A model generated the notes under the pieces. The model did not search any database. It was given only the letters and a program-made list of their open reading frames with translations, and was not told the DNA's origin. A stretch of DNA of 64,000 bases from Candidatus Geocrenenecus huangii (GTDB lineage: Archaea > Thermoproteota > Nitrososphaeria_A > Caldarchaeales > Wolframiiraptoraceae), in the NCBI GenBank assembly GCA_023254095.1, contig JALNLM010000002.1, positions 64,001-128,000 of the forward strand, read 5' to 3'. Below, piece by piece: positions 29-42,059 of the stretch (position 1 is its first letter; every line of letters begins with the position of its first letter). The position numbers and the translations under genes were made by a program.

Positions 29-787
29 TTGCTGGTAGGCTCTGTAAGTAATATCTTAAGTACTTCTAGAAGTATAACATTTGGGTTAACGATGCTCCAC
101 GCGATCCTTGGTGGAAGTCTACTAGGAGTCTACCTTAACTTAATCTTTAATCTTGATCTGCCTATCCCGCTAATCTCTACTCTAGTAGCTATATGCTTAT
201 CTATTATGGTGGGAGAGCTGGTTGAGAAAGGGTTCTCTGAAGATATGTCGATCGCATTTACTGTATCTATCGCTACAACGATGACTATCGTTTTCGGATA
301 TCTTTCAAGCCAGATATCCAGTATAGCTCTAGCTAGGGCCTGGTCCTACATTGCTGGAACATCCGCTATAAGCACTTTCCAAGACTTACTTAAATTAGCC
401 ATAACTTTATTTATAGTATTGCCGATAACACATTTGTTTTTCAGAGAATTCAAATACATAGCTTTCGATGAGGATGGGTCAAAAGCCTTGGGTCTAAACA
501 TAAGAGTCTACAGGTACATGTTTTACAGTCTTGCAGCGATCTCTGCCTCAGTACTGTCTTCGACAATAGGGGTCTTAGCTACACATGTAGTACTATCTGT
601 CCCTGGATTTCTAATTCTCAAATTCTCCAAAAGATTAAGTATTGCTTTTACCTATCTATCTTCAGTTAGCATAATGATTCTGGGATATTATTTAGCAAGC
701 CTTTTATCTATTCCTCCAAGCGGCGGAGTAGGGCTAGTATCGATAGTTGCTGTCCTAGGAGTGGTAGTATATGGAAGACGATATTAA
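29..787 (+). CDS. Mn/Zn/Fe ABC-3 transporter permease (ZnuB/TroC-like), probably 5'-truncated by the window edge
   Basis: Highly hydrophobic; 'HAILGGSLLG' and 'FREFKYIAFDEDGSKALGL' match ABC-3 permease motifs; next to a DtxR-like gene. Confidence 0.8.
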   Translation: MLVGSVSNILSTSRSITFGLTMLHAILGGSLLGVYLNLIFNLDLPIPLISTLVAICLSIMVGELVEKGFSEDMSIAFTVSIATTMTIVFGYLSSQISSIALARAWSYIAGTSAISTFQDLLKLAITLFIVLPITHLFFREFKYIAFDEDGSKALGLNIRVYRYMFYSLAAISASVLSSTIGVLATHVVLSVPGFLILKFSKRLSIAFTYLSSVSIMILGYYLASLLSIPPSGGVGLVSIVAVLGVVVYGRRY

Positions 788-1220: not shown

Positions 1221-1501
1221 CCTTTATGGGAGATAGATCTGATGGAGTTCAAGACAAGTTTTATCATGGATAATATATCGTCCAGGGTTGTAAGAAGAGA
1301 TAAGATAGTCCTATCGGAGTTGACGTAGACTTCAAGTTTTTCTCCTTCAACCTTCATGTTCAGTTCGAGGCCTCTTGGAAGTGGATAGTTGTCGGGATAT
1401 ATAGATTTCAAAACAATCTCGGCTTCTTCAGCAGTTTCGAAATACAGCTCCATCCTCGCATAAGTTTTAACTTGCGAGTACTTCTCCGACAATGGAGTCA
1501 A
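1217..1501 (-). CDS. pcc1: KEOPS complex subunit Pcc1
   Basis: 'AEIVLKSIYPDN' motif, 94 aa, conserved position after uS15-DHH. Confidence 0.75.
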   Translation of the reverse strand: MTPLSEKYSQVKTYARMELYFETAEEAEIVLKSIYPDNYPLPRGLELNMKVEGEKLEVYVNSDRTILSLLTTLDDILSMIKLVLNSIRSISHKG

Positions 1502-2894
1502 CCTCTGCCAGGAACATAGTCTTCTTAGCTAGCGGTATCTCTGCTCCGGCGGCTACGTTATGCCCTCCTCCTACGCCTCCAACTCTCTCAGCTGCTTTCT
1601 TCATCACTATGCCTAGATTTAATCCCCTCTTTACTAACTTCATCGAAGCTCTCGCAGAAGCTTTAACTCTATCTCCCTTTGTAGCTAACATTATTAGAGG
1701 CTTATCTTCTGGAAGTAGGTCTGAAGATGAGAGTATTGATGAAGCTGAGCTAACCATTCTCTCTTCTATCATTGTTCCACCATCTATCGCAATTATATAT
1801 TTAAGTTCTTGCCAGTTCTCTCTTCTAATTAAATATTCTAAGACTTCTGAGAGTCTTCTCTTATATTCTTCGAGTATCTTCTGCGCTTGTAGTAGTATCT
1901 CTCCCCTTGAACCCATAGCTATTGCTATGCCTACCCACTCATTCTCTGTTTTACCGCAAGCATTAAGTAAAGATGCATATTCTCTGGCATCCTTCAACGG
2001 GGTCCATTCTTCTTCTCTAGTAAGCTCATACACTTTTCCAACTAATTCATTTACGATGCTAGGAGGGAAATTAAGGGAAGATAGATACTTCATTAAACCA
2101 TTATAGATCGTTTTCTTCTCATCTTCGCTTAGTTCTGCGAAAACTCTCCATCTATCATCTTCCTTAAGTCTTATCTGAATAGAATTGAGGAAGCTTACTG
2201 CATGAGCTTCACTTCCAGAGATTCCTGGAATATATGGGCTTGTTGTTGAAGCTAATGCTAAATGTATGGGACGGTAGCTCCTACCATAGAATAAGAGGTC
2301 GTCTGAAACTTTTAGTAGACCTGACCTCACAGCATCTTCGACTATTAGCTTATTTAATCCATCTAGCTCTCTTTTCCCAGAAGACTTATCCTGCAGATCT
2401 CCAAGCGCCCCAACTATTGCTACAGGCGAGAGCGAGATGTTTTCCTCTGATAGAGACTTAGCTACGAGGTATGCTATTCCTGAGCTACTTATCTCTTTTG
2501 CACCGTCGATACCGCATAAATGTGGGTTAACGTGTACCCAATGCTTTTCTGATTCTCCGTCAGGTTGGTGATGGTCTAGTATAACGAATTTTCTATCAGC
2601 GAATTTTTCTCTTAGTATTCTTATGTATCCGCTTCCAATATCGGTTAAGAGTATCACTATATCTTTCTGGAGATTGGGAATACTCTCTATGACCTCATCG
2701 ATGTTTTTTACCGATCTAGTGATAAATCTTGCATTCATTCTCAATAACATTACCGAAGATATGGACCCAGAAGATAATCCATCAGCATCTATATGACAGA
2801 ATACCATAAAGCTGTTTCCATTCTCAACAAGTTCTCTAATCTTTTCAGAAGCATTACCTACCATTGCTAGAAAATCTCTATGACTCATGGTCAA
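1467..2894 (-). CDS. DHH-family phosphoesterase (archaeal RecJ/Cdc45-like)
   Basis: HIDADG, LTDIG, LDHH, GDLQD, GGGH motifs; downstream of uS15. Confidence 0.9.
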   Translation of the reverse strand: MTMSHRDFLAMVGNASEKIRELVENGNSFMVFCHIDADGLSSGSISSVMLLRMNARFITRSVKNIDEVIESIPNLQKDIVILLTDIGSGYIRILREKFADRKFVILDHHQPDGESEKHWVHVNPHLCGIDGAKEISSSGIAYLVAKSLSEENISLSPVAIVGALGDLQDKSSGKRELDGLNKLIVEDAVRSGLLKVSDDLLFYGRSYRPIHLALASTTSPYIPGISGSEAHAVSFLNSIQIRLKEDDRWRVFAELSEDEKKTIYNGLMKYLSSLNFPPSIVNELVGKVYELTREEEWTPLKDAREYASLLNACGKTENEWVGIAIAMGSRGEILLQAQKILEEYKRRLSEVLEYLIRRENWQELKYIIAIDGGTMIEERMVSSASSILSSSDLLPEDKPLIMLATKGDRVKASARASMKLVKRGLNLGIVMKKAAERVGGVGGGHNVAAGAEIPLAKKTMFLAEVDSIVGEVLAS

Positions 2895-32930: not shown

Positions 32931-33440
32931 TTGTCTGAAAAGTCTCCAAGATACTTTGCAATCAAGGTAACGGTTGGACAGGAGAGGAATGTAGCGAAGA
33001 TAATTGAAAGCAAGATCGTTAGAGAAATCATAGAGGATGGGAAAACATTGAGAAGAGAAATAATCGAAGAAGGCATCTACTCTATTATAACTCTACCAAA
33101 TATTAAGGGATACATCTTCATCGAAGCTGAAAGTAAAGAAAAAGTCTCATTGATAACTCAAGGTATTAGACATGTAAAATCTAGACCTATACTGGTGGTC
33201 AAGAAGGATGAGATCATCCAGCACCTAGTAGAGAAACCTATAATCGAGATGATCTCTATCGGAGACATAGTTGAGATAGTTGCTGGACCCTTAAGAGGAA
33301 TATACGGCAAAGTAGTAAGAATAGATAAACCTAAAAATGAGCTTACGATAGAACCTACCGATGCTACATTCCCACTCCCAATCTCTATCTCAGCAGATCA
33401 GGTTAGGGTAGCCCAGCAACCAGCTAGGGAGAGTGGTTAA
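32931..33440 (+). CDS. spt5: Transcription elongation factor Spt5/NusG
   Basis: 'TVGQERNVA', 'KGYIFIEA', KOW 'GDIVEIVAGP'. Confidence 0.95.
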   Translation: MSEKSPRYFAIKVTVGQERNVAKIIESKIVREIIEDGKTLRREIIEEGIYSIITLPNIKGYIFIEAESKEKVSLITQGIRHVKSRPILVVKKDEIIQHLVEKPIIEMISIGDIVEIVAGPLRGIYGKVVRIDKPKNELTIEPTDATFPLPISISADQVRVAQQPARESG

Positions 33441-33442
33441 GA

Positions 33443-33931
33443 ATGCCTGAGAAAACAATCCGATTCCTAGTACCAGGCGGTGAAGCTAATGCTGGTCCAC
33501 CAATAGGGCCAGCTCTAGGACCCCTAGGCGTAAACGTCTTACAGATTGTTGAAGAGATAAATAGAGTTACTTCAGAATTTAAAGGAATGAGGGTTCCAGT
33601 AGAAGTAACCGTAAATACCGATACTAAAGAATTCAAAGTCGTCGTTGGTACACCTACAACTACTGCCTTGATCGTGAAAGAAGCCGGCGTAGAGAAGGGT
33701 GCTAAAATGGCCGGTAGAGAAAATGTTGGTCAGGTCAGTTTAGACCAAGTTATAAAGATAGCTAAGATGAAGATGAATGATATGCGTGCTAAGACCTTGA
33801 AAGCAGCTGTAAAACAGGTTCTTGGAACATGTCTAAGCATGGGCATCATAGTAGACGGCAAAAACCCGAAAGAAGTAATAAGAGAGATAGATTCCGGAGC
33901 TCACGATAACAAACTAAAACAAGAAACTTGA
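33443..33931 (+). CDS. rpl11: 50S ribosomal protein uL11
   Basis: 'GPPIGPALGPLG', 'GTCLSMG'. Confidence 0.98.
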   Translation: MPEKTIRFLVPGGEANAGPPIGPALGPLGVNVLQIVEEINRVTSEFKGMRVPVEVTVNTDTKEFKVVVGTPTTTALIVKEAGVEKGAKMAGRENVGQVSLDQVIKIAKMKMNDMRAKTLKAAVKQVLGTCLSMGIIVDGKNPKEVIREIDSGAHDNKLKQET

Positions 33932-34140
33932 AACTCAAATAATGGAAAACCTTATCCAATCACAGATAACTAGACCGAGATAAATCCAGCTACCAAGGGA
34001 TAGATAAAGAGAGTCTAAGTCAATTTGATCTATTTATCTTCTATGTATTTGGAGCTCACTCGGAAAAAGTATCTCGGAATGTTTATATAAATGAGAAATT
34101 CTTAAATTAACCTGAATCCGTCAACTATCAGAGAAGAGCT

Positions 34141-34797
34141 ATGTTGAGAACGCTAGAAGCAAGCCTGGCTACAGCTATTGAACAAGCTAAGAATGATGGA
34201 GTATCTAGGAAATTTGAGCAGAGCATAGAATTGATAATAAACGTTAAGGGGATAGATTTGAAGAAGCCTGAGAATAGGTTCGTGGAAGATATAGAGCTTC
34301 CGAACGGTCTAGGAGATGGGAGGAAGATATGCGTTATAGCTGGAAGCGCTTTAGCTTCCGAAGCAAAGAAGCTCAAGGAAGTAAGTAGAGTAGTAGAGAG
34401 AAATGAGCTGGAATCTCTTGTTGGGAATAAGAGATTAGCGAAGAAGATTGCTTCAGAATATGATTACTTCCTAGTGGATCCTCCTCTAATGGGTTTAGCA
34501 GCGAAGGCTCTTGGAGCAGTTCTTGGAGGCAGGGGCAAAAGACCCGTCCCGATACCTCCCGGGTCAAACATAGCAGACCTAGTTAAGAAGTACTATAGAA
34601 CGGTAACGGTGAGTGTGAGGAAGAACCCTCAAGCCATGTGTAAAATAGGCTTAGAAAGTATGGATACGAAGGCTCTTGTAGAGAATGCCTTAACAATAGT
34701 TTCTAAGGTCTCGGATAAATTGGAGAAGCATTTCAAGAACGTAAACTCGATATATGTCAAGAAGACTATGGGTAAGCCTATCAAGGTAGAATTGTAA
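34141..34797 (+). CDS. rpl1: 50S ribosomal protein uL1
   Basis: 'RKFEQSIELIIN', 'KKTMGKP'. Confidence 0.96.
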   Translation: MLRTLEASLATAIEQAKNDGVSRKFEQSIELIINVKGIDLKKPENRFVEDIELPNGLGDGRKICVIAGSALASEAKKLKEVSRVVERNELESLVGNKRLAKKIASEYDYFLVDPPLMGLAAKALGAVLGGRGKRPVPIPPGSNIADLVKKYYRTVTVSVRKNPQAMCKIGLESMDTKALVENALTIVSKVSDKLEKHFKNVNSIYVKKTMGKPIKVEL

Positions 34798-34809
34798 AAG
34801 TCGTGTAGA

Positions 34810-35466
34810 TTGATTGGAGGAAAGTTTATCAACAGAGTAAGAATAGTTGTAAGCTGGAGCTTGAAGCATAAACTTGGTTTAAAGATCGCAAAGATCCTGA
34901 TAAGAAACAGCGATTGTAAAGTTGTAGAATTCTTGAAGAATAAGGCTATAGAAGCACAATTCAGAAAAGTCAGAATAAGCGAGAAGTCTTCTACCCATCT
35001 CCTAAAACTCTATGGAGAGATAAGGATTAGTAAACGCTTAGATATTCCAGGCTCCTACATGGTCTTGCCGAACAATTACCTATGGATAAGTACTGAAAGC
35101 TGTACATCCTGCAGAATCTTCTCTCGTCTACCAGTAATCGTCGAATCCATATAATATGTAAGATCTCTAGGCGTTATTACAACAATGATAATTCCAGGAA
35201 GGCTATTCTGTAAGCGGGTTTTAGAGGATTTGAAGGAGGCTGATCTAAGTGTAGAAACAATCTCAATCAGAGATTATGAAGATCATGAGTTGACGAAGAG
35301 GCAGAGGGAAGTTCTCTCAGCAGCTTTGAGGATAGGCTGCCTGGGGAGTAAAAGGAGTGCGAGATTAAAAGACCTAGCATTCTTGGTTGGAGTAGATTCT
35401 TCTACAGCCTCTAGGATTATTAGAAATGCTATAAAAAAGGTTGTGGAAAAGACTCTCGACGAGTAA
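34810..35466 (+). pseudogene. Bat/HTH_10-type transcriptional regulator interrupted by one in-frame TAA (35152-35154)
   Basis: ORFs 34810-35154 and 35185-35466 share a frame (..ESI*YVRSLGVITTMII..); C-terminal 'LTKRQREVL..LKDLA..SSTASRIIR' HTH; CTSC motif. Confidence 0.7.
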
Positions 35467-35531
35467 TTAATATAGAATAGGTGCAACATTTTGCATCCCA
35501 CGATTATCTTTAATCAATTCAATATTAATTA
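35464..35531. promoter_or_regulatory. Palindrome-rich promoter region of the oxidase-like operon
   Basis: TGCAA-N4-TTGCA (35482-35495), GATTA-N4-TAATC (35502-35515), flanked by TAATTAATAT/ATATTAATTA. Confidence 0.35.
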
Positions 35532-35537
35532 TTGGAT

Positions 35538-36113
35538 ATGGCTCCACAAGTCTTCATAGAGATAGTTTATTTTGTTATGATATCCATTGTGATAGGCTTC
35601 ATAATAGCATTCTACATCATTACACGAAAAAGAGGGGGCGGAAGACCCAACCCGGCCAATGAAGGGCATGCAGAAAAGAAAGGCATGGAGAAAGGAGAAA
35701 AGCGATGGCTTATCTTCTTATTCATAATAGTTGTTGTCGGGAACATACTCATGTTATCTCCGATACTTCCATCTTCACAATATGCATTATGGCTTAAAGA
35801 AGAACCAAAAATAACTATTACGATAGAAGTAAGAAACTATGAATTCGTTTTCCCCGAGAAACCGATAACTATTCCAGCCGGAGTCCCGGTAGAGTTCATA
35901 GTAATATCTCAAGACCTGGTTTATGGTTTCGGAGTATTCAAGAAGGATGGACTCATGGTTTTCCAGATGCAGGTTGTACCTAATCCATATGTGAATCGGA
36001 TAGTATGGATATTCGATGAGCCCGGATACTATGACGTGAGGTCTACAGAATACAGTGGCCCGAAGCATCCCTACCTGTATTTCCCGGACGCGATTAGAGT
36101 AGTCGGGGGATGA
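35538..36113 (+). CDS. Heme-copper oxidoreductase subunit II homolog without CuA ligands (gNOR-like)
   Basis: Two TM helices plus cupredoxin domain; 'DLVYGF' and 'RSTEYSGPKHPYL' replace DVxHGF and CxExCGxxHxxM. Confidence 0.85.
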   Translation: MAPQVFIEIVYFVMISIVIGFIIAFYIITRKRGGGRPNPANEGHAEKKGMEKGEKRWLIFLFIIVVVGNILMLSPILPSSQYALWLKEEPKITITIEVRNYEFVFPEKPITIPAGVPVEFIVISQDLVYGFGVFKKDGLMVFQMQVVPNPYVNRIVWIFDEPGYYDVRSTEYSGPKHPYLYFPDAIRVVGG

Positions 36114-36119
36114 TGTTAG

Positions 36120-37688
36120 GTGGATGAAGAAGAGAGGAAGAGAATTTCAATCAGATTCGTGGTCGTTTCATTAGTCTTCTTGGCATTGGCTGGGATAGAA
36201 GGAATATTGATGAGGCTTAGGTTGATGAATACTCTTGTAGAGTTCTTTGATGAAAAGCATTTCTACTCCATGATGACCGCTCACCCATTTGTAGGAGTAT
36301 ATGGATGGGCTTACATGGCAGTGATGGGCGCATTCTACTTCCTCGTACCCTACATTCTCAAGAAAGATATCTATAGCAAGAAAGCTGCATACCTGAGCTT
36401 CTGGATGATGCTAACAGGCCTGATAGCAGTTTGGAGTACAACATTTCTTACACATTATGCTCCGCTCTACACATTGTACTGGCCCATACCAGTAGCATAC
36501 ACTATCATTGGATGGGACTTATACTCTATACTAGCGTTTGGAATAGGTGTCGGACTAATCCTAGGAGGAGTACTCGTATTCTTTGGAAACATGTTCGCAA
36601 CAATATTCCTTCCAGCTAGGCAGATGGATGGAGGACCAGCCAGCCCATGGTATATCATTAAAGAACTTCTCACAACAGCCTTCAACCTAGACAAGATTAA
36701 AGCAAAGATAACCGGTATACCTCAATATACTTCTAAAGCATTCAATTACCCTGTTTTCGTCGTCGCCGTATTTAGAGGATGCGTGGATACTACACTAAAT
36801 GCGTTCGTTATCGGTGGAGTAGGCATACTATTAGCGGCATTCGCGATAGGGAACCTTGCCCCCTCGATCTCTCTATCAACAAGCATGGTTGACCCCTTAG
36901 TATACAAGAACGTCTTCTGGTGGGGTTTAGACTTAATAGCGGATGGAAATGTGCTCATCTTTACTGCTGGCACATGGTATCTCCTAGTACCATTATTACT
37001 AAATAGGACATTATACGGTGAAAATGTTGTTAGAACAGTTATATTGGCAGATCTGGTCGTTTCTCTCTTCGTATGGAATCACCATATGCTTGCAGATACG
37101 CCTCAGCCAATCTTCTTACAGATACAGGAGCAGATATTTACTTGGGGAGAGCTTTTAACTATGGGTCTCACAATGTTCGCAGTACTTGCGACAATATGGT
37201 TCGCCAGACCTGTAAAGTACAACATGCCCCTGAAATTTGTTCTTGTATCGATTACTGGCTATGCGGTAGGAGGTCTAGCAGGTATAATACAAGCAAATTA
37301 TGCATCAAATAGGTTCTTCCACAATACTCAATGGGTGATAGGTATCCATGGGCACATACAACTACTCGTAGGATTATCCTCAACATTGTTTGCGGCGATC
37401 TATGCTCTCTTCCCACTGCTAACAGGTAAAAATCTCAGTGATAGACTAGGTAACATTCATCTGATACTGTGGAGTGTAGGTGGATTAGTGATGGGTTTGA
37501 GCATGGGGTTGGCGGGAACTCTAGGCATGTTGAGGAGAACTCTCTACCCGATGGGTTTGGGACTATATGAACCCTACATGGTGGTAGCCTCTCTTGGAGC
37601 ATTCATGATGGCTACAGGGTTCTTAGTATTCCTAGTAAATGTTCTGAAGACAGTAAAATTAAAAGATCTCTTAAAGATAATCTTCTAA
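36120..37688 (+). CDS. Heme-copper oxidoreductase subunit I with His-to-Asp active site (gNOR-like putative NO reductase)
   Basis: H55, H321/H322, H410/H412, 'YTLYWP' and 'MLRR' retained; 'FWWGLDLIAD' in place of FWxxGHPxVY. Confidence 0.85.
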   Translation: MDEEERKRISIRFVVVSLVFLALAGIEGILMRLRLMNTLVEFFDEKHFYSMMTAHPFVGVYGWAYMAVMGAFYFLVPYILKKDIYSKKAAYLSFWMMLTGLIAVWSTTFLTHYAPLYTLYWPIPVAYTIIGWDLYSILAFGIGVGLILGGVLVFFGNMFATIFLPARQMDGGPASPWYIIKELLTTAFNLDKIKAKITGIPQYTSKAFNYPVFVVAVFRGCVDTTLNAFVIGGVGILLAAFAIGNLAPSISLSTSMVDPLVYKNVFWWGLDLIADGNVLIFTAGTWYLLVPLLLNRTLYGENVVRTVILADLVVSLFVWNHHMLADTPQPIFLQIQEQIFTWGELLTMGLTMFAVLATIWFARPVKYNMPLKFVLVSITGYAVGGLAGIIQANYASNRFFHNTQWVIGIHGHIQLLVGLSSTLFAAIYALFPLLTGKNLSDRLGNIHLILWSVGGLVMGLSMGLAGTLGMLRRTLYPMGLGLYEPYMVVASLGAFMMATGFLVFLVNVLKTVKLKDLLKIIF

Positions 37689-37879
37689 AACTTCATATAT
37701 GGACTCTTTTTCATTAATAACGTTACATGGGATAGCAGATTGTGACCTGTAGATATCTTAAGAGCAGAATCGAGAAAGGAATATAGAAGTCCTTCTCTCC
37801 AGCTGATTTTAGGTTTTTTAAGTAGATGAGGATATAGAGTTTGTGAGTTAGGAGAGTTTAGAGAGGCGTTCAGCTGGAC

Positions 37880-38746
37880 TTGTCCGGGCAGACTCTCGTC
37901 TCAAAAGTACAGAAATGGAAGGCTGAAGAAGTAGAAGAATTAGCGGAACTTATCAATAGGTATCCTGTAGTCGCCGTCTTTAATCTATCTGGTCTTAGAG
38001 CCAACCTGCTACATGAGATCAGGAAGAAGCTTAGAGGCTACTGTACGATAAGGGTTGCCAAGAAAACCTTATTCATTAAAGCTGCTGAGAAAACTGGTAA
38101 AAAAGATTTGGTCAAGCTTGTGGAAGATTTGAAATCGAGTGCTGGTTTTATCTTCTCAGATGTAAGCTTGTTTAAGCTAAAGTTACTCTTTGATAAAAAC
38201 AAGATTTTAATGCATGCTAAAGCAGGAGAGAAGGCAGACATAGATATAGTCGTACCTGAGATGAATACTGGTCTTCCACCTGGTCCAGTTCTAAGCGATT
38301 TCGGAAAATTAAAGATACCAACTAAGATAGAAGGCGGACAAATATGGATCGCTAAGGATACTGTGGTTGCTAAGAAGGGCGATGAGATCTCCCCTCTACT
38401 AGCTTCGCTGCTAGCTAGATTAAACATTAAAGCAGTGATGAAAGGTATAACAATCGATAAGGGTTATGAAGACGGAGTAGTAATCTCAGGGAAAGATCTT
38501 GAGATAGACTTGGAGAAGATGAAGAACGAGGTGATCGAGGCGAACAGCCTTGCTATTAAGCTAGCGATCGATATAGCGTATGTAACTAGAGAGACTATTC
38601 AGACTCTAATAATCAAAGCCCATAGAGAAGCTAGAATATTAGCGGTTGAAGTAGGTCTACCGATCAGAGAAGTAATAGGGGAGATCTTGTTAAGAGCTGA
38701 AGCTGTTGCTAGAAAACTGAAAGAGAAAGTAGATTCAAAGACGTAA
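37880..38746 (+). CDS. rpl10: 50S ribosomal protein uL10 (P0)
   Basis: 'WKAEEVEEL', 'VAKKTL', 'NTGLPPGP', 'TKIEGG'. Confidence 0.96.
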   Translation: MSGQTLVSKVQKWKAEEVEELAELINRYPVVAVFNLSGLRANLLHEIRKKLRGYCTIRVAKKTLFIKAAEKTGKKDLVKLVEDLKSSAGFIFSDVSLFKLKLLFDKNKILMHAKAGEKADIDIVVPEMNTGLPPGPVLSDFGKLKIPTKIEGGQIWIAKDTVVAKKGDEISPLLASLLARLNIKAVMKGITIDKGYEDGVVISGKDLEIDLEKMKNEVIEANSLAIKLAIDIAYVTRETIQTLIIKAHREARILAVEVGLPIREVIGEILLRAEAVARKLKEKVDSKT

Positions 38747-38755
38747 CCTAGGATT

Positions 38756-41548
38756 TCACGTAGGTTGTTCTCCGAGCATATGGGATAATATTTCACCGAC
38801 GACGAGCCTCAAGGCTTCTTCATCTACATCTCTATCTAATGTTCCCTGACCTATCCTGGGTTGCCCACCTGCCCTCCCACTCAACTTTAACGTAAGCTCT
38901 TCAGCCATCTTTCCAGCATGAACACCTTGGGATTGAGCTTCTTCATTAGATACTACGAGTAAATTTGGCCTCTCGAACCCGTAAACAAGTACAATACATT
39001 TCGGTCCGGCCTTCTCCATCAACTTGTCGGAAATCATGAAAGCATATTCTTTATCTCCGCCAACCTCTCTGGCCACGTATGCCTCCACGCCCCTAATCCT
39101 CAACGGTCTACTAGATAGTTCTCGGGCTCTATAATCCGCGATAATCTTTGATAACGAGTGAATCTTCTTCCTGAATTCTTTAACTTCCTCTAGCTGTTCT
39201 CTTACTTTCTCTAAGAGGTCTTGCGGAGAAGATTTAAGCGTCAAAGATGCTTCGTAAATTATTCTATCATTTTCCTGGAGATATGGTAGCGCGGATACGC
39301 CTGCTGAGAAGATGAACCTCTCAACACCCTCTTGTATCCTCTCTGTTCTCAGTATTTTGATTATTCCTACGTCCTCAGTATTTTCACAGTGTATCCCTCC
39401 ACATGCCTCTGCATCCCAGCCAGGTATCTCTACCACTCTTATTATAGCCGATGGAACTTCTCCTCCCTGATACAATGTAAATCCGTAAATCCTCTCAGCT
39501 TCATTCCTATCCATCCACTTGACGATGACTGGAAGCCGGCTTGCAACAACATCGTTAGCTAGATTCTCAATCTTATTCAAATCCTCTCTGGACAATCTCT
39601 TATGATGGTATACGTCGAGCCTAGCTTTATCAGGCTCCTTCTCCGCTCCCGCCTGCCATGCATGTTTTCCCAAGACTCTCCTAGCGGCCCCCAATACTAT
39701 GTGGGTAGCAGTATGATGCCTCATCAACCTAAGCCTTCTATCTCTGTCTAATTCTCCTATAACGTCTATCCCGACCGGTGGAGTACCGCCCTGTACTTTA
39801 TGTAAGATTACTCCACCGCCGAGGAGAACAGCTTCTTCAACTCTTGCTTCACTCTCCCCCCATCTTAGGAATCCCTTATCTGATGCTTGTCCCCCACTCG
39901 TTGGATAGAATAACGTCTGGTCTAAAATAACGTAATCGTCTACAACTCCTAAGACTCTTGCCTTAAAACTGAATTCCGTAGGTTTCTCATAGTATAGCTT
40001 CCTCGTAGCTGGATGATTCTTTACTTTTTCTTCAAGGATCTTTATCCAATCCTGCGTTGATGTTTCGACTGCTCTAAGATGCCTGGAAGCTACGAGTTCA
40101 TAAAAGTTCTCAGGGATACTAAGCTTCACATTAATTTTTTCAGCTATCTGTTTGACGAAGTCTGGCGTTAAACCCTTCTCATCATACATCCTTACCAAGA
40201 AGTCGGGAGGCACAGTGTCTGTCTTATTCTTTAATTGATTGAGCTCTTTCTCTACATAGGATGCTCCACGCTGAATTGTTTCTCTGAATTTTCTGATTTC
40301 TGACTCGACTATTTCGACTATCTCATCTCTCGCCTCAACTAGATGCGGGAAATCTCCACCCCAGTGATCTATTTGTAGGTCTACTAGTTCGATGAGTTTA
40401 TCTCCAGAATTAAGTAACTCTAACAATCTACAGGCTTTCCTAATGAGTAGTCTAGCTAGGTAGCCGACTTTAACATTTGATGGTACCACCCCCTCACCGA
40501 TTATGAAGGTTATAGATTTAGAGTAATCTAGGAGTGCGTAGACTCTTTCAAGGGGAACTATCTCTTTCTCAATTACTTCTAAAGGTATCCCTGACCTTTC
40601 TGATACTATTCTTCTAGCATCATGAATAGTCTGGCTGGCTTTCGGAACTACTAGAGCCGTGTACGGTGAGTATGCTTCTAGAAGCTTCCGGTCTGGTTTA
40701 GGTACTTCAAGTATCTTCTCCAACTTTGGATAAAGCCTACCATAGATTGCGTCGAAGCAACTCGGAGTTCCTTGGCTGAACCATGCAAATCTTTCTATTC
40801 CATAACCTGTATCCACAGTCCTGATCGGTAGCTCTACCAGCCAGCTATCTAGAGTCTTGTATTGCATGAATACTAGAGTGGCTAGTTCTAAGCCATAGGA
40901 GATAGTCTCGAAGCATGGGCCAGCGTTTCCTCCACCACTCCATATAGATTCCTTGTAGATTATTTCTTCTTCAGGTATTCCGAATTCTTCTCTAACGTAT
41001 TCATGGTAGTATCTTACAGTATCTTCTTTCCAGTAAACTTCCCTGTCAGGATAGTTGAAGGCATGTGCACCCCCCATCTCGAATATTGTTAAGTGTCTCC
41101 CAAATGTTAGCCCAACCTTATCTACGTCGACCAGTCTTATACATGGTTGGCTGATAACTAGAGGGTTTGCTGGGGGTGGAGCTATACCTGAAGTAACGAA
41201 TGGCTGGAAATCTACAATGCTTGCATCGGTCAAGAACATGTCTGTCCTCCATCTAGCTACGACAGGATAAGGCTTGATAACCTGATGACCTCTCCTCTCG
41301 AAAAATCTTAGGAACAATTCTCTTGATCCTTTAACATCTACCTGTTTTCTTGCCAGATTCTTGCCTACGAATTTATATTCTTCGCACGGCGACTCGCCGC
41401 ATATATCCCTATCAGGATTCACTGTCCAGAAGTATTCCCCACATATTCTACATTTTTTCCTAACATATCCTCTTTCTCTGAAAAATTCTAGGGAATACGT
41501 TTCTGGGCCGCGGAGTTTATCAAACGTGACCATTGATCCTTGCGACAA
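38756..41548 (-). CDS. alaS: Alanine-tRNA ligase
   Basis: 'PYPVVARWR', 'FEMGGAHAFN', 'DTGYGIER', editing 'HTATH..CGGIH'. Confidence 0.98.
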   Translation of the reverse strand: MSQGSMVTFDKLRGPETYSLEFFRERGYVRKKCRICGEYFWTVNPDRDICGESPCEEYKFVGKNLARKQVDVKGSRELFLRFFERRGHQVIKPYPVVARWRTDMFLTDASIVDFQPFVTSGIAPPPANPLVISQPCIRLVDVDKVGLTFGRHLTIFEMGGAHAFNYPDREVYWKEDTVRYYHEYVREEFGIPEEEIIYKESIWSGGGNAGPCFETISYGLELATLVFMQYKTLDSWLVELPIRTVDTGYGIERFAWFSQGTPSCFDAIYGRLYPKLEKILEVPKPDRKLLEAYSPYTALVVPKASQTIHDARRIVSERSGIPLEVIEKEIVPLERVYALLDYSKSITFIIGEGVVPSNVKVGYLARLLIRKACRLLELLNSGDKLIELVDLQIDHWGGDFPHLVEARDEIVEIVESEIRKFRETIQRGASYVEKELNQLKNKTDTVPPDFLVRMYDEKGLTPDFVKQIAEKINVKLSIPENFYELVASRHLRAVETSTQDWIKILEEKVKNHPATRKLYYEKPTEFSFKARVLGVVDDYVILDQTLFYPTSGGQASDKGFLRWGESEARVEEAVLLGGGVILHKVQGGTPPVGIDVIGELDRDRRLRLMRHHTATHIVLGAARRVLGKHAWQAGAEKEPDKARLDVYHHKRLSREDLNKIENLANDVVASRLPVIVKWMDRNEAERIYGFTLYQGGEVPSAIIRVVEIPGWDAEACGGIHCENTEDVGIIKILRTERIQEGVERFIFSAGVSALPYLQENDRIIYEASLTLKSSPQDLLEKVREQLEEVKEFRKKIHSLSKIIADYRARELSSRPLRIRGVEAYVAREVGGDKEYAFMISDKLMEKAGPKCIVLVYGFERPNLLVVSNEEAQSQGVHAGKMAEELTLKLSGRAGGQPRIGQGTLDRDVDEEALRLVVGEILSHMLGEQPT

Positions 41549-41747
41549 TTTATCTCTCCAGCAAGCAATCTAAGAAAAGACACTTTAAATACTTTAAATC
41601 AAGCATACTCTCTTTCGCCATTAATATTTTTATTCATATTTTGTTCCACGTCTCATGACCTCTACGGTTTTTCTTTTTATCCGGCTCGGTAAGACTAACT
41701 AATTTAGTTTAGTCGACCGTAATGCCTCCTAATCGGATCGAGTATGT

Positions 41748-42059
41748 TTAACCAAATAATGCGCTCAGTCCAGCTAATGCCTCTTCCTCTTCTTTCTTTT
41801 CTTCTTTCTTCTTCTCCTCAACGGGTTTAGCTTCAGTCGTAGTGGTAGGTGCAGGCGCTGTTGGAGCTACGGCAACAGGCATAGCCGTCGCAGACTTCAA
41901 CACCTCATCTATATTTACTTCAGAGATTGCGGCTACTAGTGATTTTACTCTTACCTCGTCAGGCGTTATCCCCGCAGCTACTAGGACTTTCCTTAGATTT
42001 TCTTCATTGATTTGTTTCCCAGCTTTATGAAGTAGAAGAGCAGCATAAACATACTCCAT
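41748..42059 (-). CDS. rpl12: Ribosomal stalk protein P1/L12
   Basis: '[11 protein letters not shown]', acidic hinge, 'GLSALFG'. Confidence 0.98.

Follow-up and report, generated by a model that had tools for sequence, protein, structure and literature searches.

Two adjacent genes in a 64,000-nucleotide stretch of the Candidatus Geocrenenecus huangii genome (contig JALNLM010000002.1, positions 64,001 to 128,000; hereafter, the window) encode a membrane enzyme from the superfamily of heme-copper oxidoreductases (HCO) in which two active-site residues of the O2 reductases are replaced by aspartates. On its sequence features, the enzyme is a further member of gNOR, a family reportedly described by Hemp & Gennis in 2008 and by Sievert et al. 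in 2008, rather than a new enzyme class. The best explanation of our results, and one that we consider probable, is that the two genes encode a quinol-driven reductase of external nitric oxide (NO).

The gene for subunit I, the 12-helix HCO catalytic subunit, lies at positions 36120 to 37688 (+ strand). It is an uninterrupted open reading frame (ORF) of 522 residues with a GTG start, and the Pfam COX1 profile (PF00115) spans the whole protein (E value, 5.2e-62). Scripted numbering yielded H55, D271, D275, H321, H322, H410, and H412, with the motif FWWGLDLIADGNVL beginning at residue 266. H55 and H412 are predicted to bind the low-spin heme and H410 the high-spin heme, while D271, D275, H321, and H322 are predicted to hold the second metal. 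The codons for D271-L-I-A-D275 are found at 36930 to 36944 (+), in helix VI, where O2 reductases have H-x3-Y; those for H321 and H322 of helix VII, both retained metal-ligand histidines, are found at 37080 to 37085 (+). An earlier reading of the window, made without database searches (the sequence-only reading), had named the same residues, and the ORF, the numbering, the multiple alignment, and the conservation analysis all agree with it.

To place these residues, we aligned subunit I with 64 distant full-length HCO representatives using MAFFT L-INS-i. D271 falls in the column of the His and D275 in that of the Tyr of the G-H-P-x-V-Y motif of other HCOs; H321 and H322 match the HH pair, and H410 and H412 match the H-x-H pair. 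The helix VI His column holds His in 50 of the 51 filled rows from outside the family and Arg in the other one (P0158). In the pairwise phmmer alignment to the A-family oxidase aa3-600, helix VI is offset by one residue, which puts L270 under the His; therefore, we base the reading of Asp for His on the multiple alignment, together with what has been published about the family.

The altered active site is conserved. In a set made of the window protein and its 120 best homologs (98 to 48% identity; n = 121), D271, D275, H321, H322, and H412 are present in 121/121 sequences each, H410 in 120, and H55 in 117, with gaps in the remaining four rows. Y262, Y287, D311, E344, H401, and N402 are likewise invariant, as are R472 and R473 in alignments of 13 and 67 sequences. 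The CuB His and the cross-linked Tyr, both of which the sequence-only reading had declared missing, are thus replaced by Asp throughout the set. This pattern reflects purifying selection on an altered active site, neither chance nor decay. In this regard, a decaying or nonfunctional oxidase remnant with mutated metal ligands is highly improbable. The adjacent regulator gene does carry an in-frame stop in this strain, but the subunit I ORF is full length, and the D-x3-D motif and the heme ligands vary little or not at all down to 48% identity. The gene is also kept in 8/8 genomes of the genus, no fewer than 585 species genomes carry it, and RNA-library contigs are found on parts of the genes for subunits I and II.

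The missing Tyr has not been relocated within the protein as in the C family. According to the sequence and the helix limits of the model, helix VII of subunit I (residues 301 to 325) contains no Tyr, so a C-family-style relocation is not possible; since residue 271 is Asp, there is also no helix VI His for a His-Tyr link. The AlphaFold2 model, built on the 67-sequence alignment, has a mean predicted local distance difference test score of 85.1 and a predicted template modeling (TM) score of 0.88. It places H55 in a helix spanning residues 45 to 80, D271 and D275 in one spanning 259 to 294, H321 and H322 in that of 301 to 325, and H410 and H412 in that of 408 to 435. Foldseek searches of the PDB gave full-length matches to solved oxidase subunit I chains with TM scores of 0.72 to 0.79, which show the fold only and do not separate A-like from B-like enzymes.

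Subunit II is encoded immediately upstream, at 35532 to 36113 (+), as a protein of 193 residues from a TTG start (an ATG is found at 35538), with a hydrophobic N terminus and a cupredoxin domain lacking the CuA site. It matches the NCBIfam CoxB profile below the cutoff (1.8e-7), and its best likeness among solved chains is to subunit II of the Thermus thermophilus ba3 oxidase (1.6e-5). We aligned it to ba3 CuA-domain chains, the engineered variants 6pty and 6ptt. S171 and S175 occupy the positions of the bridging Cys residues, Y131 that of the first His, and L182 that of the Met; H179 is kept. Among the 81 rows of subunit II taken from related loci, S171 is conserved in 75, S175 in 79, Y131 in 75, and H179 in 72, and 72 rows have Met at the position of L182. 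The stretch R-S-T-E-Y-S-G-P is conserved in 75 to 80 of the rows, and within residues 126 to 182 as a whole, Y131, S171, T172, E173, Y174, S175, G176, P177, and H179 are each conserved in 72 to 79. The former CuA site is not degenerate and may have taken on a new role, such as binding another metal, contacting quinol, or maintaining structure. The gene order is also stable: among 80 related loci, 75 have the subunit II gene ahead of that for subunit I.

In the passages on gNOR, Murali et al. 2024 (PMC11214002) present it as the first family of HCOs in which an active-site His has given way to Asp; its members lack the active-site Tyr, have a cupredoxin subunit without CuA residues, and possibly oxidize quinol. 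The literature places gNOR next to the B family. The same passages report it from Bacteria and Archaea of mainly sulfidic environments and credit “Ca. Methylomirabilis oxyfera” with a gNOR; in Table 1 of that work, the family is counted in 10 NCBI genomes, 156 GTDB genomes, and 913 IMG metagenomes. For gNOR, a table in PMC8756737 has “D” where the Tyr would be and shows no proton channel; the hosts given there are Sulfurimonas, Sulfurovum, and Persephonella, with Sievert 2008 as the source. A legend in a 2021 preprint allows for a channel built from some of the conserved gNOR residues, one that would not map onto its B-family counterpart.

The window enzyme shares with gNOR the Asp for a ligand His, the Asp at the Tyr position, the cupredoxin partner without CuA, possible quinol-site residues, an occurrence in Archaea and Bacteria of sulfidic or geothermal settings, and polar residues off the B-family K-channel (here T341, E344, and T347). 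We saw no difference from the family in its defining features; the sequence-only reading was right to call the enzyme gNOR-like. Its remark that gNOR is reported mostly from bacteria needs a correction: the cited passages of PMC11214002 report the family from both domains, and we found it in at least 585 species genomes, so an archaeal copy is no surprise. What is particular to our case is that the enzyme is its host's only full-length HCO, that the genus has neither Nir nor Nos, and that the genes sit within a ribosomal protein cluster. In the literature searched for Geocrenenecus or Aigarchaeota together with heme-copper and nitric oxide, we found no discussion of the gNOR of this lineage, and the main text of the Geocrenenecus/AigG5 paper (PMC9246946) has no mention of oxidase, heme, cytochrome, or nitric oxide.

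From the ligand set and the gene content of the host, we infer the metal, the heme types, the electron donor, and the substrate. The membrane complex would carry a low-spin heme on H55 and H412, a high-spin heme on H410, and a second metal held by two His and two carboxylates, instead of by three His beside a His-Tyr cofactor. Such a set would suit non-heme iron, in parallel to FeB of cNOR. Because D271 and D275 are in place, the His-Tyr radical cofactor that four-electron O2 reduction requires cannot form. The most likely reaction would be 2 NO + 2 e- + 2 H+ -> N2O + H2O at the heme-FeB pair. Since subunit II has lost CuA, the probable electron source is membrane quinol, which also feeds bo3 and aa3-600; a quinol pool is implied by the presence of cytochrome bd in the genome. 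The hemes are expected to be of type b and/or o because the genome encodes a heme O synthase (263.8 bits), while no match to heme A synthase was found in this genome, which is 96.4% complete. The invariant residues T341, E344, and T347 of helix VIII may carry protons. T351 occupies the column of the A-family K-channel Lys and varies, with S or A in some members.

Several known enzymes share parts of this arrangement. Like the window enzyme, cNOR and qNOR have a heme/non-heme metal center without a Tyr cofactor, and a carboxylate stands in for the Tyr (Glu in those enzymes, Asp in ours); the Glu by FeB of cNOR was reportedly described by Hino et al. in 2010. The invariant Glu of helix VIII, E344, recalls what we take to be a conserved helix VIII Glu of cNOR, and qNOR also draws its electrons from quinol. 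Yet cNOR and qNOR keep three His ligands and belong to a C-family branch, whereas the window enzyme has neither a cytochrome c subunit nor a fused domain. The B-family ba3 oxidase of T. thermophilus shares the subunit I fold, the H-N-T motif before the helix X His, and the likeness of the subunit II cupredoxin, but it has an H-x3-Y motif of the His233/Tyr237 type where the window enzyme has D-x3-D, and it has the CuA site that is missing here. The quinol oxidases bo3 (Escherichia coli) and aa3-600 (Bacillus subtilis) are the top-scoring solved relatives and also have a subunit II without CuA; unlike the window enzyme, they have CuB with three His and a cross-linked Tyr and reduce O2. E27 (invariant) and H47 (99/121) pair in the alignment with two aa3-600 residues, an Asp in helix I and a His before helix II, which are presumably quinol-site residues. 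Four residues before that Asp, aa3-600 has an Arg that we also take to be part of the quinol site; Leu23 aligns with it here. Finally, eNOR, bNOR, sNOR, and nNOR are said to have arisen when O2 reductases lost the Tyr, and they share a cupredoxin-type second subunit. They keep three His, however, and have Gln, Asn, or Glu in place of the Tyr; biochemical proof exists for eNOR and bNOR, unlike for gNOR. Fully conserved proton channels are credited to these four families and not to gNOR in the relevant part of PMC11214002.

Established HCO classes were considered for the window protein and rejected. Subunit I falls far short of the cutoff of every NCBIfam oxidase equivalog: it scores 133.5 bits against CtaD (cutoff, 670.75) and 63.7 bits against the cbb3-type CcoN (TIGR00780; cutoff, 583.15), the latter over residues 10 to 110 only. 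A cbb3-type identity is also contradicted by the lack of Tyr in helix VII and by the cupredoxin partner. An A- or B-family O2 reductase is contradicted by D271 and D275 in place of His and Tyr and by Ser at both CuA Cys positions, and cNOR or qNOR is contradicted by the Asp in place of one ligand His and by the lack of any NorB chain among the 60 top-ranking PDB matches to the family profile. The sequence-only reading had anticipated that annotation pipelines would mislabel such a protein as cytochrome c oxidase. The names of its homologs bear this out: they are “cbb3-type cytochrome c oxidase subunit I” in NCBI and “cytochrome c oxidase subunit 1” in IMG. The cbb3 label would wrongly imply aerobic respiration in lineages described as anaerobes.

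We then asked how the D-x3-D proteins relate to other HCOs. A word-indexed search returned 2661 proteins at an E value of <= 1e-5 among 8000 candidates scored. An exhaustive search of 1.84 billion representatives at 50% identity gave two full-length family members, with 497 and 381 bits; full-length matches outside the family start at 115 bits and 28% identity. In a quick IQ-TREE phylogeny with 62 rows, the 13 rows that have D-x3-D group into a single clade (Shimodaira-Hasegawa-like approximate likelihood ratio test support of 100; stem of 0.76) apart from the other 49 rows, all of which have Asp at neither helix VI position. The other groups are a 28-row clade, in which 26 rows have H-x3-Y, and a group mixing H-x3-Y and H-x3-N; the deep nodes joining the groups have support of 19. 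Against PDB chains, the family profile gives 4.6e-31 for aa3-600, ~4e-19 for ba3, and 4.8e-12 for cbb3.

Within the D-x3-D clade, proteins from Terriglobales and Methylomirabilota are sisters of the Caldarchaeales rows; the Methylomirabilota protein (P0049) is 65% identical to the window protein. As a gNOR is attributed to Ca. Methylomirabilis oxyfera in PMC11214002, the place of P0049 in this clade gives indirect evidence that the clade belongs to gNOR. Because bacterial proteins hold this position, the gNOR-type gene has passed between domains. A pattern scan using one genome per species found at least 599 stretches, of which at least 585 were confirmed; thus, at least 585 species genomes carry the D-x3-D gene. 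The best 80 of these come from Caldarchaeales/Aigarchaeota, Bathyarchaeia, Geothermarchaeota, Thermofilaceae, Methanomethylicia, many Chloroflexota, Firestonebacteria, Omnitrophica, and WOR-1. In a FastTree phylogeny of 78 of these best 80 proteins, the window protein lies in an all-archaeal clade of 15 rows with support of 100, and the ortholog of Ca. Geocrenenecus dongiae is 86% identical to it. The nearest neighbors of the D-x3-D clade from outside the family are the long-branched proteins P0153, P0158, P0190, and P0150, which have odd helix VI motifs, namely, H-x3-N and, in P0158, R-x3-Q. If the latter alignment is correct, P0158 would be another HCO without the helix VI His.

The assembly of the host genome (G000; 1.61 Mb in 32 contigs, with the window on contig 17) contains no full-length HCO other than subunit I, according to a PF00115 search, and it encodes a cytochrome bd with a CydA of 524 residues (219 bits). 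Of 76 genomes of the order, 18 have an ortholog (at least 73% identity), in two cases as a fragment: all eight genomes of the genus have the gene (both fragments are among them), as do 1/3, 2/2, 3/3, and 4/8 genomes of four other genera. NirK is above the cutoff in 0/76 of these genomes, and NirK-like matches are found in 0/8 genomes of the genus; other Caldarchaeales genera have NirK-like matches of ~165 bits, below the cutoff of 296, which could be NirK or other multicopper proteins. NosZ is present in 12/76 genomes, five of which also have the ortholog, and in none of the genus. Among the 80 related carriers, we searched 50 for Nir, namely, those nearest to the window protein, which are neither a random sample nor filtered for completeness. 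Strong NirS matches were found in three of the 50, a NirK above the cutoff in one, and sub-threshold NirK-like matches in four more. The enzyme thus stands alone, without Nir or Nos, in its genus, and most carriers examined lack NirK and NirS. The single carrier with NirK above the cutoff is G086, the genome of locus L023 (contig 5, 122602 to 123513; 356.6 bits); its NirK would lie ~8.5 kb from the gNOR genes if contig 5 is the L023 record.

Two loci elsewhere in the host genome are worth recording. On contig 26 (L002), an ORF for a membrane protein of 175 residues at 1366 to 1896 (-) reaches 23.8 bits, below the cutoff, against positions 342 to 413 of COX1, and a neighboring hydrophobic ORF of 113 residues at 50 to 391 (+) belongs to no family. 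The former could be an HCO remnant or an unrelated small membrane protein. The cytochrome bd locus (L003 to L005) lies on contig 13 at ~150073 to 152606 on the - strand. There, CydA is followed by an ORF of 372 residues that weakly matches the CydA profile in both its N-terminal and its C-terminal part, possibly a divergent second cytochrome bd subunit.

The neighborhoods of 80 related loci and the window (81 in total) give a broader view of the family. A hemerythrin-domain gene occurs in 24/81 loci, often directly downstream; examples with an HHE domain are L022 (8358 to 8981), L024, L047, L050, and L052. These neighbors are found in archaeal (Methanomethylicia and Bathyarchaeia) and Chloroflexota carriers alike. 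The window genome has four hemerythrin matches elsewhere and none beside the operon. Crp/Fnr regulators occur in 13 loci, ferredoxin genes in 14, UbiA-family (heme O synthase-like) genes in nine, and an HTH_10 regulator in 15 loci besides the window, all of them archaeal. No neighboring gene in the 81 loci indicates a specific alternative substrate.

Since the genus lacks NirK, NirS, and NosZ, the substrate of a NO reductase in this organism must be external. NO could come from denitrifying neighbors or from abiotic nitrite chemistry in the hot spring, and the role of the enzyme would be NO detoxification or a small respiratory sink rather than classical denitrification. The hemerythrin and Crp/Fnr neighbors found elsewhere in the family provide an NO-related context for this reading.

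Other results weigh against NO reduction. In the window genome, 96.4% complete, we found no match to NirK (TIGR02376) or NirS (PF02239), none to NosZ, and no true NarG (best match, 27.9 bits). The sequence-only reading had reported no nitrite reductase gene in the window and had proposed a genome search for nirK, nirS, and nosZ; that absence extends to the whole genome. The scarcity of Nir genes among the 50 carriers indicates that gNOR is not bound to denitrification. Both kinds of neighbor, hemerythrin and Crp/Fnr, suit the sensing of O2 as well as that of NO. The regulator next to the operon carries a stop codon in this strain, and the evidence for transcription described below consists of contigs, so DNA carry-over is possible. 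The origin from B-type oxidases, claimed in the literature and taken up by the sequence-only reading, was not reproduced: deep support is 19, and A-family structures score above ba3 by profile. Finally, gNOR is described as biochemically uncharacterized in the passages of PMC11214002 devoted to it, and its substrate is inferred from ligand chemistry only.

Some of these points would fit a different substrate equally well. A copper-free oxidase that scavenges or reduces O2, using heme and non-heme iron where sulfide limits copper and protecting an O2-sensitive fermenter, would agree with the lack of NirK and NirS in most carriers examined and in the whole genus, with the predominance of anaerobe lineages among carriers (Anaerolineae, Bathyarchaeia, and Methanomethylicia), with the hemerythrin and Crp/Fnr neighbors, and with the best scores of the family profile, which are to A-family quinol and cytochrome c oxidases. 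We nevertheless regard it as unlikely: helix VII offers no Tyr for a His-Tyr cofactor and the partner His is Asp, this cofactor is required for O2 reduction by HCOs according to the passages cited from PMC11214002, and cytochrome bd already serves O2 in this genome.

Alternatively, a heme/carboxylate-metal site of a new kind could reduce or transform some other small molecule (N2O, nitrite, peroxide, or a sulfur species, for example), in which case the NOR label would be wrong for the whole family. Biochemistry is absent for every family member, most carriers examined lack Nir, more invariant carboxylates lie near the site (E344 and D311), and N2O reductase or NO dismutase activity has been proposed for other HCO branches (PMC11214002, in the part on those branches). 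Yet the ligand set parallels FeB of known NO reductases, a synthetic mimic of the gNOR ligand set reduces NO according to the same source, and the neighborhoods give no pointer to an alternative; we consider this scenario quite unlikely. Reduction of external NO by a quinol-fed gNOR thus remains our preferred explanation.

A broader proposal, which we raise only tentatively, is that gNOR is not an enzyme of denitrification but a copper-free, sulfide-tolerant respiratory enzyme of anaerobes, fed by quinol, using external NO or trace O2, and often accompanied by a hemerythrin partner. Under this proposal, fermentative archaea like this Geocrenenecus-type lineage, along with Anaerolineae, Bathyarchaeia, and Methanomethylicia, could dispose of electrons through the enzyme, and T341, E344, and T347 might give it a separate channel that makes its turnover electrogenic. 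If true, NO-scavenging respiration without Nir would be widespread in anoxic and geothermal communities. Likewise, if the absence of Nir in most carriers holds, the use of gNOR as a marker of denitrifiers in metagenomic surveys of N2O is questionable. The family is among the last of the HCOs without a purified member, and its metal site of two His and two Asp is unique in the superfamily. A two-gene operon from a thermophilic archaeon that recurs in hot-spring metagenomes would be a practical source for biochemistry and cryo-electron microscopy; the window DNA was found in 17 rows from 10 such studies.

Contigs assembled from a metatranscriptomic library (X15) match the operon with at least 99% likeness. 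They cover 35601 to 36140, a stretch that takes in subunit II and the beginning of subunit I, and 37332 to 37537 within subunit I, together with parts of rpl1 and rplP0. The regulator and most of subunit I have no X15 contig, but as these are assembled contigs, gaps between them cannot show absence. This coverage is consistent with transcription of both genes without proving it.

The genes for the regulator, subunit II, and subunit I are inserted between rpl1 (34141 to 34797) and rplP0 (37880 to 38746) of the Spt5-L11-L1/L10 cluster, in the region from 32931 to 42059. Beyond rplP0, alaS (38756 to 41548) and the L12/P1 gene (41748 to 42059) lie on the opposite strand. The same insertion is found in loci L009, L010, L012, and L039 and is not shared by L011 (Ca. 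Geocrenenecus dongiae), L013, and L014. Because the insertion is present in the loci of some relatives and absent from others, our results suggest that the gNOR operon is mobile.

The regulator gene, of the HTH_10 type (34810 to 35466, +; PF04967, 1.7e-10), is a single frame broken by an in-frame TAA at 35152 to 35154, which yields ORFs of 114 and 93 residues, the latter with the helix-turn-helix domain. Intact orthologs of 200 to 207 residues occur in L009 to L012 and L039, with a sense codon at the site of the stop, and in tblastn comparisons, 66% identity runs across it. At position 35154, run X9 has A like the window, while contigs from X12 and X13 have C (TAC, Tyr). Since the X12 and X13 contigs read TAC, the stop is a nonsense polymorphism at the strain level, and it may deregulate the operon.

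Another set of neighbors is confined to Chloroflexota. An unannotated protein of 438 to 563 residues, without a Pfam match, is encoded near subunit I in eight Chloroflexota loci, which include L048 (5336 to 7938), L023, L049, L059, L069, and L077, and directly downstream of it in six. In L023, L048, and L077, it is followed by a gene of the FGE-sulfatase family and then, in L023 and L048, by a UbiA-family gene. The products of these genes may help to assemble the unusual metal site.

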